The notes below the pieces were generated by a model. It was given only the letters and a program-made list of their open reading frames with translations. It did not search any database and was not told where the DNA came from. The position numbers and the translations under genes are program-made. Below are positions 27,514 through 29,638 of a stretch of DNA of 30,776 nucleotides, in pieces (position 1 is the stretch's first letter; each line of letters opens with the position of its first letter). The DNA is from a virus (lineage: Duplodnaviria > Caudoviricetes), in the IMG/VR virus record IMGVR_UViG_3300034112_002752, positions 1 through 30,776 of that record; one strand, given 5' to 3'.

Positions 27514-27930
27514 ATGGCAAACAAATTTAAAAAAATAGAAGAATCTTTAAATATAGAAACCTCAATTGTTTCTGTAGTAGATTCTGCTGAACTTTCTACA
27601 TCAGAAACTTCAAATGACCCACAAAAAGATTATGAGTATAGTAGAGGACAACTGTATAGTTTAATCTCAAAGGGACAAGAAGCAGTTGATGGCATATTAG
27701 AAATTGCTCAAGAATCTGGTCACCCAAGAGCATTTGAAGTTGCAGGTCAATTAATCAAATCTGTTGCAGATACCACAGATAAATTGATTGATTTACAAAA
27801 GAAAATGAGAGAGTTAGATGCTCCCCAAAAAGGTCCTACAACAGTTAACAACTCACTTTTTGTTGGGTCTACTGCAGAGTTATCCAAACTTATAAAGCAA
27901 GGTCTGCTAAATAGTGCAGAAGAATCATAA
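27514..27930 (+). CDS. gp16: terminase small subunit gp16
   Basis: KDYEYSRGQLYSLI.KGQEA.DGILE.A..S.HPRAFEVAGQLIKSVAD.TDKL.DLQKK and NNSLFVGST.EL. Confidence 0.95.
   Translation: MANKFKKIEESLNIETSIVSVVDSAELSTSETSNDPQKDYEYSRGQLYSLISKGQEAVDGILEIAQESGHPRAFEVAGQLIKSVADTTDKLIDLQKKMRELDAPQKGPTTVNNSLFVGSTAELSKLIKQGLLNSAEES
27907..27913 (+). promoter_or_regulatory. late promoter-like CTAAATA in the 3' end of gp16, upstream of the mosaic gene
   Basis: TAAATA core about 23 nt before ATG 27937, similar spacing to the other late promoters in the window. Confidence 0.55.
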
Positions 27931-27936
27931 TATGTA

Positions 27937-29322
27937 ATGAGAGATCCAAAAGGACCTGTAAAATCATACAAGACCCCAAAGGAAATCGCTGCAAAGCATA
28001 ATGTTCCTTTGGATAAAATTATTCAACAGGTTAAAATGGGAACTAAAGTTGAAGGTGAGCATACCACAAGTAAAGGTGGTGCAAAGATTACTGCATTACA
28101 GCATGTAGATGAACTTCCAGATTATTATTCAAAATTAAAGAAAATTGAAAAAATTAAAGAAGGTTCTCTTCATCAGTGGTTTAAAGGTTCTAAGTCAAAA
28201 GACGGAAAACCAGGATGGGTCCAATCAGATGGTTCTTCATGTGCAAATGAACCAGGAGAAACAAAAACACCAAAATGTTTCTCAAGTTCAAAATTAGCAA
28301 GCATGTCTAAAAGTGAAATTAGATCTGCAGTAAAAAGAAAAAGACAACAAGATCCAGGTCAACAGCAAAAAAGTGGTGCTGCAAAACCAACTTATGTTTC
28401 TACAGATAAACCAGAAAAGAAAATGAACGAAGAATCAGACGTCAAAAGTAAAGGTAGTGGCGAAAAAGATGCTTGCTACCACAAAGTAAAAGCAAGATTC
28501 AAAGTTTGGCCAAGTGCATATGCATCAGGAGCTCTTGTTAAGTGTAGACAAAAGGGTGCTAAAAACTGGGGAAACAAATCAGAGGAAGTAAGTGTAGAAC
28601 AGCAATATGAAAAAGATACAAAATATTGTCTTCTTTGCAAAAAGAACGAAAAAAGAGATGAATGTTCTTATGGTCCTCAAATGTGGGATAGGTATACTAT
28701 AGCAAAAATTCATCCTGCCAATGAATCAAAGATTCATGAGGATCATAAAGAAGTTGCTTCTGGAAAGAAGAAAGATGAAGAAGGATACATGGCAAGAGTT
28801 GAGTTTGATCAAATTGAGAGAGCAATTAATATTTTAAGAAAACATATTAAGAAAGGAGATCAACAAATTCCTGCTTGGGTTCAATCTAAGATTACAAGAG
28901 CAGCAGATTTTATTGATACTGCAGCAGAATATATGCAGAGTGATGAGGATATATCTGAAGCATGTTGGCAAGGATACAAGCAAGTTGGAATGAAGAAAAA
29001 AGGTAAGAAAATGGTTCCAAATTGTGTTCCTGCAAATGAAGATACTTGTTTGACATTTTCACAATTTATGGCAGAAGTTGCTGCATGGCAAAGAAAAGAA
29101 GGTAAGAATCAATCTGGTGGTCTGAATGAAAAAGGTAGAAAATCATATGAGAGGGAGAATCCAGGGTCAGACCTCAAATCACCTTCAAAAAAAGTAGGCA
29201 ACCCTCGTAGAGCATCATTCTGTGCTCGTATGTCTGGGATGAAGAAAAAGTTAACTTCAGCAAAAACTGCCAATGATCCAAATAGCAGAATTAACAAATC
29301 CTTAAGAGCTTGGAATTGCTGA
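27937..29322 (+). CDS. Lys-rich multi-module protein, putative internal-head polyprotein (461 aa)
   Basis: About seven short, compositionally distinct modules joined by linkers ending in IKE, MNEE, KSEE/VSVE, IHE, ISE and FMAE. Confidence 0.75.
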   Translation: MRDPKGPVKSYKTPKEIAAKHNVPLDKIIQQVKMGTKVEGEHTTSKGGAKITALQHVDELPDYYSKLKKIEKIKEGSLHQWFKGSKSKDGKPGWVQSDGSSCANEPGETKTPKCFSSSKLASMSKSEIRSAVKRKRQQDPGQQQKSGAAKPTYVSTDKPEKKMNEESDVKSKGSGEKDACYHKVKARFKVWPSAYASGALVKCRQKGAKNWGNKSEEVSVEQQYEKDTKYCLLCKKNEKRDECSYGPQMWDRYTIAKIHPANESKIHEDHKEVASGKKKDEEGYMARVEFDQIERAINILRKHIKKGDQQIPAWVQSKITRAADFIDTAAEYMQSDEDISEACWQGYKQVGMKKKGKKMVPNCVPANEDTCLTFSQFMAEVAAWQRKEGKNQSGGLNEKGRKSYERENPGSDLKSPSKKVGNPRRASFCARMSGMKKKLTSAKTANDPNSRINKSLRAWNC

Positions 29323-29323
29323 T

Positions 29324-29638
29324 ATGAAAAGTTATAAACAGTTTCTTTCAGAAAGTATCAATATTCAAGGTGACTTTAATGGAACCCTGAATATTGGATC
29401 ACAACCATCTCCACAACAAGTGGGAGAAGAATTCTCTGTTGATTTTGTGTGGCAAGGAAGCATTTATAGAGTTGATATGATTTCAGAGCATGGAATTCCC
29501 TCAAAAGATAAACTTGTAGAGCATCTTCAAAGAGAGTATCCTGGAGCAATTATACATAACATATATCCAGCAACTCAAAAAGTAGAAAACATAACTAAAG
29601 TTAGCAGGTATCATCCAGCAAAATTAGAATGGATTTGA
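29324..29638 (+). CDS. 104-aa protein with N-terminal capsid-targeting-like sequence; putative internal head protein
   Basis: Begins MKSYKQFLSE, compared with the T4 internal-protein targeting sequence MKTYQEFIAE. Confidence 0.7.
   Translation: MKSYKQFLSESINIQGDFNGTLNIGSQPSPQQVGEEFSVDFVWQGSIYRVDMISEHGIPSKDKLVEHLQREYPGAIIHNIYPATQKVENITKVSRYHPAKLEWI

Follow-up and report, generated by a model that had tools for sequence, protein, structure and literature searches.

Candidate prohead protease-processed polyprotein of basic mini-proteins in the late structural region of a T4-like phage

Introduction

The capsid targeting sequence of bacteriophage T4 has aromatic residues at positions 4 and 7. 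Within this sequence of 10 residues, positions 4 and 7 act in targeting and positions 8 and 10 in processing, and the prohead protease gp21 cleaves after L/I-X-E (PMC9026906). Each of the T4 internal proteins IPI, IPII, and IPIII is a single product of a single gene, with one N-terminal leader, a capsid targeting sequence of 10-19 residues, and processing by gp21. Multiple internal Glu-ending prohead protease sites occur in gp22, gp67, and gp68 and in the long propeptides of the giant phages SPN3US and phiKZ, the multiply cut parts of which are cleared. In eukaryotic DNA viruses, a virion protease makes several core proteins from one precursor. Polyvalent proteins, known from phages and conjugative elements, are shuffled multi-domain proteins that are thought to be packaged in virions and are sometimes released by proteolysis; their domains are large and enzymatic, often with an embedded peptidase (Iyer 2017, PMC5512222).

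We analyzed a 30,776-nt virus record (IMG/VR IMGVR_UViG_3300034112_002752; hereafter, the window) whose relatives are cyanophages of the Kyanoviridae. T4-like cyanophages rank with the most abundant marine viruses, and the gene family of interest is nearly universal in them. This family, phrog_727, is the same as T4-GC119 (Sullivan 2010, PMC3037559 Table S8), since the S-SM2 orthologue is labeled GC 119, and it was published as a structural protein of unknown function with a gene length of 276-2985 nt. That label has stood since 2010; the reading proposed here offers a mechanism and exact predicted neo-N-termini. Neither modularity nor processing of T4-GC119 is described in the available parts of PMC3037559. 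The literature searched, with most subscription papers beyond reach (the Syn9, S-PM2, and S-CRM01 proteomes included), contained no paper on processing or modularity of the family; DUF6321 and DUF5661 gave no hits there, and DUF5872 gave one table row, on an algal virus.

The protein resembles the T4 internal proteins in its predicted small basic products, a targeting-like decapeptide, a Glu-ending motif, T4-type head assembly, and a virion-associated family (PMC9026906, PMC3012670), but here many products would come from each chain and the motif is internal. No sequence relationship to the T4 internal proteins was found with Pfam, PHROGs, or a sequence search of solved structures. Compared with polyvalent proteins, its modules are non-enzymatic and 25-90 aa long, and the protease would act in trans. 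No catalytic conflict domain or embedded peptidase was found in the query above the Pfam cut-off, and cyanophage and Synechococcus had no hits in the available parts of PMC5512222. Unlike the cleared parts of gp22, gp67, gp68, and the giant-phage propeptides, the pieces here are folded, conserved, and free elsewhere. The eukaryotic core polyproteins differ in protease class and motif, and no homology is claimed.

Results and Discussion

A modular basic protein is encoded downstream of gp16

The window corresponds to a late structural region from the genome of a T4-like phage, with baseplate, neck, and tail-completion genes recognized by sequence and gene order. A sequence-only reading had described an open reading frame (ORF) at 27937..29322 as a string of modules. 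Translation reproduced its coordinates and module motifs, and the ORF is a single open frame. Its features and those of its neighborhood are as follows.

27514..27930, + strand: gp16, terminase small subunit (phrog_445, E 1e-54), directly upstream of the modular ORF
27908..27913, + strand: predicted T4-type late-promoter hexamer TAAATA, 29 nt before the ATG
27937..29322, + strand: 461-aa modular protein of the T4-GC119/phrog_727 family, pI 9.6, net charge +34 (ORF translation)
27937..28161, + strand: module A, DUF5661, four helices, aa 1-75, ending I-K-E75 (Pfam E 2e-12; pLDDT ~90; motif in 45/59 aligned rows)
28162..28431, + strand: module B, basic, two Cys, aa 76-165, ending M-N-E165 (profiles; stand-alone genes elsewhere)
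28432..28587, + strand: module C, basic, two Cys, aa 166-217, with a junction to Z that lacks the motif (stand-alone genes elsewhere)
28588..28740, + strand: module Z, CxxC plus a third Cys, neutral, aa 218-268, ending I-H-E268 (motif in 55/57 aligned rows)
28741..28959, + strand: module D, helical hairpin, slightly acidic, aa 269-341, ending I-S-E341 (motif in 44/64 aligned rows)
28960..29046, + strand: module W, cationic beta-hairpin, one Cys at either end, aa 342-370 (sequence, AlphaFold)
29047..29076, + strand: internal decapeptide resembling a capsid targeting sequence, aa 371-380, with F374, F377, M378, and E380 (motif at E380 in 75/83 aligned rows)
29077..29319, + strand: module F, DUF6321, net charge +14, two Cys, aa 381-461 (Pfam E 1e-22)
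29324..29638, + strand: next gene, 104 aa, phrog_1742, stand-alone paralogue of module Y (hhalign 96%, E 3e-9)

PHROGs assigned the 461-aa protein to phrog_727 (E 3.5e-121) and to twelve partial families, none with an assigned function. Two Pfam domains, DUF5661 (residues 14-72) and DUF6321 (389-459), were above the cut-off and no others were; module C was weakly DUF5872-like, under the cut-off (E 0.016).

The gene had been placed between gp16 and gp17. The upstream flank stands, with gp16 directly adjacent; gp17 falls outside the window and was seen downstream only in relatives. Neither gp17 nor gp21 is present in the 30.8-kb record. In 15 related loci, gp16 lies 5' and gp17 3' of the gene, and the same order is found in S-SM2, S-SCSM1, and S-CREM2. 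A TAAATA promoter of its own had also been proposed, at 27907. The hexamer is present at 27908-27913, and four other late genes, among 12 genes checked, have one at the same offset of 24-30 nt, but taken alone the hexamer is rarer in the window than chance (41 versus 61). Among IMG/VR loci we also compared the best 80 of 588; 35 of the 80 carry T4 markers and 45 do not. In 20 of the 35 loci with markers and in 1 of the 45 marker-free loci, TAAATA lay at most 50 nt 5' of the first module ORF.

Programmed frameshifting at an in-register G_GGA_AAC heptamer (28569-28575, at the end of module C) was considered and rejected because the gene is a single open frame and the heptamer, slippery in 9 of 30 copies, follows from a conserved W-G-N. 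It is probably a by-product of the amino acid sequence.

AlphaFold, run on an 85-row colinear alignment, gave beads on a string (mean pLDDT 73.5, pTM 0.28). The independent mini-domains anticipated from the sequence were thus seen in the model, separated by low-confidence linkers with pLDDT <50 at residues 160-177, 208-225, and 258-270. Module F folded alone reached pLDDT 75.7 and pTM 0.48. Foldseek searches with the whole model against the PDB and with module F returned nothing at E <= 0.001, and the best VIA-align hit to module F had Z 4.2 and rmsd 3.4 (43 aligned), so that module F is marked as neither a known nor a new fold. A likeness to alpha-defensins, from three Foldseek rows (E 6.7-9.7, 22-25 columns), was discarded as just a short beta-hairpin. 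Sequence searches found no solved relatives (best E 0.21; no hits for free F). Among the named top hits in BFVD there were family members only, and the ESM Atlas returned only unnamed viral clusters and DUF5872/DUF6321; look-alikes of module D, 68-84 aa long, form clusters there.

Module order varies across homologues

Profiles were built for seven modules (A, B, C, Z, D, W, and F). Family matches comprised 505 phage records and 8,428 clusters at 50% identity, and two sets were compared: 120 listed close homologues and 150 listed representatives of the 8,428 clusters. The former had 16 module orders and the latter 67, with losses, duplications, and reversals. The build of the family is modular and shuffling; homologues are not uniformly full length or colinear, and the AlphaFold beads do not make one globular unit. 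In the representatives, gaps between modules held at least 30 further recurring segments, and the S-SM2 family member carries a DUF192 domain as cargo. Insertions of at least 35 aa lay at most 15 residues from a junction in 22 of 26 distinct cases, against 41% expected (P0005-P0060, 56 of the 120 homologues). One insert of 200 aa, common to four representatives (P0184, residues ~264-463), resembles by eye what we take to be an intein/HINT-type domain.

A hydrophobic-X-Glu motif precedes most modules

Nearly every junction had been said to end in hydrophobic-X-Glu. Five of the six named junctions do (I-K-E75, M-N-E165, I-H-E268, I-S-E341, and M-A-E380). The VSVE221 assigned to the C|Z junction does not fit: S-V-E221 occupies P3-P1, and none of 63 aligned rows has hydrophobic-X-E in that column. 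As a consequence of this misfit, about six products would be expected instead of seven. Two extra motifs lie within modules, V-D-E59 (58/64 rows) and L-N-E398 (60/83 rows), so that protection by folding must be assumed.

In the 461-aa protein alone, the motif hardly exceeds chance (7 of 35 Glu; background 0.16). Whole-protein motif frequency was rejected as a test, with controls spanning 0.46 to 1.47 times background. The signal is instead the position of the motif across homologues. We anchored 625 module copies, 570 with 30 upstream residues and 55 N-terminal copies that were counted apart, 31 of which keep a motif leader. The motif stood directly before the core in 485 of the 570 internal copies, compared with 118 +/- 10 when the same linkers were shuffled; the windows behind this count were chosen after the data had been viewed. 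With a single fixed window, thirteen held-out modules gave 67 of 90, compared with 20.6 in shuffles (maximum 33). Common ancestry of module copies and the close relationship among the free F genes mean that these counts are not independent. As the sequence-only reading had proposed, then, hydrophobic-X-E stays with the N-terminus of each module while module order and number vary.

The majority of copies had the motif in 25 of 28 neighbor pairings; those mostly without it were C>Z (5/14), Z>D (6/16), and Z>F (0/2). Glu preceded by a hydrophobic P3 made up 160 of 1436 inside module cores versus 1409 of 4786 outside. Strict L/I-X-E occurs in three of the five sites of the query and M-X-E in the other two, and P3 across the family is V (30%), I (25%), L (23%), M (15%), or F (7%). 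In two cyanophage major capsid proteins, the N-terminal segment has L-T-E-A or L-S-E-A at its end. Cleavage of the polyprotein by a T4-type gp21 appears probable.

Alternatively, the chain could be a head protein that stays uncut as beads on a string, its acidic linkers serving as spacers or as patches that bind the core, with an incidental motif. In SPN3US, about 80% of head proteins escape cleavage (PMC10052503), and both the conserved motifs inside modules and the C|Z junction would suit this arrangement. Unrelated modules nevertheless bear the same N-terminal tripeptide whatever precedes them, a short motif leader is kept by 21 of 29 N-terminal copies of module B, and the motif is missing from free F genes in marker-free phages, which makes an uncleaved protein distinctly unlikely in our judgment.

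Modules F, B, and C are separate genes in phages without T4 markers

The strongest evidence for the polyprotein reading comes from a natural control: where T4 head markers are absent, modules F, B, and C are separate basic genes of 46-94 aa with no acidic leader. That several modules stand alone in other aquatic phages had been suggested in the sequence-only reading, and for these three it proved correct in marker-free loci, podoviruses, and the Roseobacter phage CRP-901. Four marker-free loci could be typed by non-T4 terminase, portal, capsid, or internal-virion genes, and the rest are untyped and closely interrelated. Free B was found in L068, L072, L078, L079, and CRP-901, and free C in L068, L078, L079, and CRP-901. 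Such small basic proteins are often missed by annotation, and the CRP-901 genes are unannotated. Free genes for modules A, Z, D, and W did not turn up in non-T4 phages among the best 80 of 588 loci and the cultured phages.

Free F is usually 80-94 aa, and 41 of 42 copies in the marker-free loci (best 80 of 588) lack an acidic or motif leader. The exception, L083, adjoins a cytidylyltransferase of the T4-cyanophage type; stand-alone modules in T4-like phages (L083 and Cr30 gp166) retain a targeting-like leader. In 39 of 42 free F genes, Met precedes the conserved Trp by 6 residues, and in 113 of 115 polyprotein copies the predicted cut Glu precedes it by 1-5 residues. Free F begins no more than a few residues from E380, where the cut is predicted. 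The E398-type motif is present in 84 of 136 polyprotein copies of F versus 1 of 42 free genes. F of the query is 77-84% identical to stand-alone F of phages without T4 markers.

F adjoins a capsid or scaffold gene in the cultured podoviruses P-SCSP1d, Jormungand, and S-RIP1 and is also a free gene in HTVC204P and MaMV-DH01; a related free module recurs in Pelagibacter, Roseobacter, and cyanobacterial phages. Next to free F there are arrays of tiny basic genes, with free B, free C, and free forms of three held-out modules (9, 10, and 15 hits) among them. Plasmids had no match to module F. A T4-type gp21 query, which does not extend to other protease types, matched none of five complete non-T4 records with free modules (control E 1e-87) and none of four further fragments. 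The occurrence of fused modules as free genes elsewhere, together with a head-protease motif before most of them, suggests that the product is packed in the head and cut.

Family members are found in cyanophage virions

T4-GC119 is listed as a structural protein with 13 counts in S-SM1, as absent from S-PM2, and as annotated but undetected in Syn9 (PMC3037559 Table S8, with columns assigned to these phages by inference from the available main text). In S-CREM2, where the modules are divided over two proteins, the virion proteome contains gp137 (F plus a Y-like module) as well as gp160 (B, W, and C) (PMC10665884 Table 3), with low coverage of 4.1% (gp137) and 13.1%. S-SCSM1_29, which has modules B, C, W, Z, and F, is annotated as a virion protein. 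Homologues are thus present in virions of S-SM1, S-CREM2, and S-SCSM1. The sources on these three phages and the literature searched report no cleavage, neo-N-terminus, or gel size for any family member, and the P-SCSP1u cryo-EM and P-SSP7 papers hold no virion data on the free genes.

Low virion coverage could also reflect a disposable core protein like gp22, gp67, and gp68, cut up so that its pieces leave the head and traces stay in virions. gp22 and gp21 are themselves seen in the virion proteomes of the cyanophages, and T4 core proteins are cut into many fragments that are mostly removed (PMC9026906). Scaffolds, however, are acidic and Glu-rich throughout (S-CREM2 gp144 has 45 Glu in 352 residues), whereas the module cores are basic, Glu-poor, folded, highly conserved, and found as free genes where nothing is cut. 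We therefore regard disposal as highly improbable. Retention of the products as free proteins in the head seems likely.

Proposed processing and function of the products

In the proposed mechanism, the polyprotein gene would be transcribed late and the chain drawn into the prohead core, with the capsid-targeting-like motif as a possible targeting signal. The prohead protease gp21 would cut after E75, E165, E268, E341, and E380 and release about six mini-proteins (A, B, C+Z, D, W, and F). These would remain inside the head, where the basic ones would bind packaged DNA, with their Cys pairs as candidate disulfide or metal staples. Expected product masses are 4-12 kDa; four products are basic (pI 9.0-10.7) and one is acidic, and Lys and Arg make up 25% of the module cores. 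Earlier, about seven basic or Cys-paired peptides had been envisaged; the number falls to about six with the C|Z junction, and Z and D are not basic.

The near-identity of F across unrelated capsids and hosts and the high Lys/Arg content of the cores point to a partner common to all of them, most simply DNA. Lysines of the T4 internal proteins contact DNA phosphates (PMC3012670). That DNA binding and charge neutralization are the main job of the products is a prediction to which we give an even chance. The full mechanism, an internal head polyprotein processed by gp21 to release DNA-binding basic mini-proteins, seems moderately probable, or a little less than that.

The chain might also be cut as proposed to yield anti-defense or host-takeover effectors that are injected, like T4 IPI*, the cassette delivering interchangeable cargo. 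The T4 internal proteins are diverse injected defense inhibitors that have only the targeting sequence in common (PMC3012670). Foreign cargo is accepted by the cassette (DUF192 in S-SM2 and the further recurring segments), and the predicted product sizes (4-10 kDa) are comparable to that of IPI* (76 residues). Counter-defense proteins evolve fast, however, unlike F, which is so similar across unrelated phage types. Neither sequence searches nor Foldseek matched the protein to known effectors, nor did VIA-align match module F to any, and the free genes cluster at head or packaging genes in several phages. Injected effectors as the products seem rather unlikely to us, although they are compatible with the DNA-binding explanation and the two are not exclusive.

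If the polyprotein reading is true, the role of gp21 would grow from leader trimming and scaffold destruction to the maturation of several retained products per precursor, and a set of small basic proteins would link T4-like myoviruses with podoviruses of SAR11, Roseobacter, and cyanobacteria. T4-like cyanophages may use one protease-cut cassette where other aquatic phages use an array of tiny genes for the same role. More tentatively, at slightly below even chances, aquatic tailed phages of many types may have in common an overlooked kit of tiny Cys-stapled, Lys-rich virion proteins for packaging or escorting DNA, made in T4-like cyanophages as a shuffling, gp21-cut polyprotein and a cargo cassette for head and host. 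The gene product would then be a genuine multi-product core polyprotein in a tailed phage.

Targeting-like motifs and other observations

Residues 371-380, just before module F, have Phe at positions 4 and 7, Met at position 8, and Glu at position 10. This targeting-like pattern occurred 14 times in 13 of the 150 listed representatives, versus 0.04 in shuffles; one copy was N-terminal and 13 were internal. By sequence inspection, the N-terminus of the 461-aa protein has no capsid targeting sequence, the only candidate being the internal one. The 104-aa product of the next gene starts with a targeting-like leader of 10 residues ending at E10, a pattern shared by 9 of 12 orthologues, and module Y is fused inside the polyprotein in 29 of the 150 listed representatives. 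The S-SCSM1 orthologue of the 104-aa gene is not labeled as a virion protein.

Several other loci were recorded in passing. In S-SM2, the small gene SSM2_108 (L002:1776-2204) carries two targeting-like motifs, one N-terminal and one internal, ahead of a module found fused into polyproteins elsewhere. In S-CREM2, genes for virion-detected proteins (gp154-gp160, L004:24609-29236) cluster at a distance from the head genes. Among them gp154, a cytidylyltransferase, begins with a capsid-targeting-like leader, which suggests that enzymes use the same loading route. Vibrio phage VPs20 (L092:2386-3654) has module A (DUF5661) inserted in the middle of a DUF2213 protein in a head gene cluster.

Arrays of four to eight very basic genes (45-100 aa) are present in non-T4 aquatic phages at L042:8818-10258, L073:5726-6800, L078:1000-2161, and L082:9271-11411. 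Several lie near head or packaging genes, and they are mostly unannotated and conserved across hosts; such arrays may be a virion DNA-packing kit. In S-SRM01 (L005:2217-9884), some annotations seem mistaken: the names 'tail sheath' and 'terminase large subunit' are apparently swapped, and the gp21 orthologue is labeled 'primosomal protein'.
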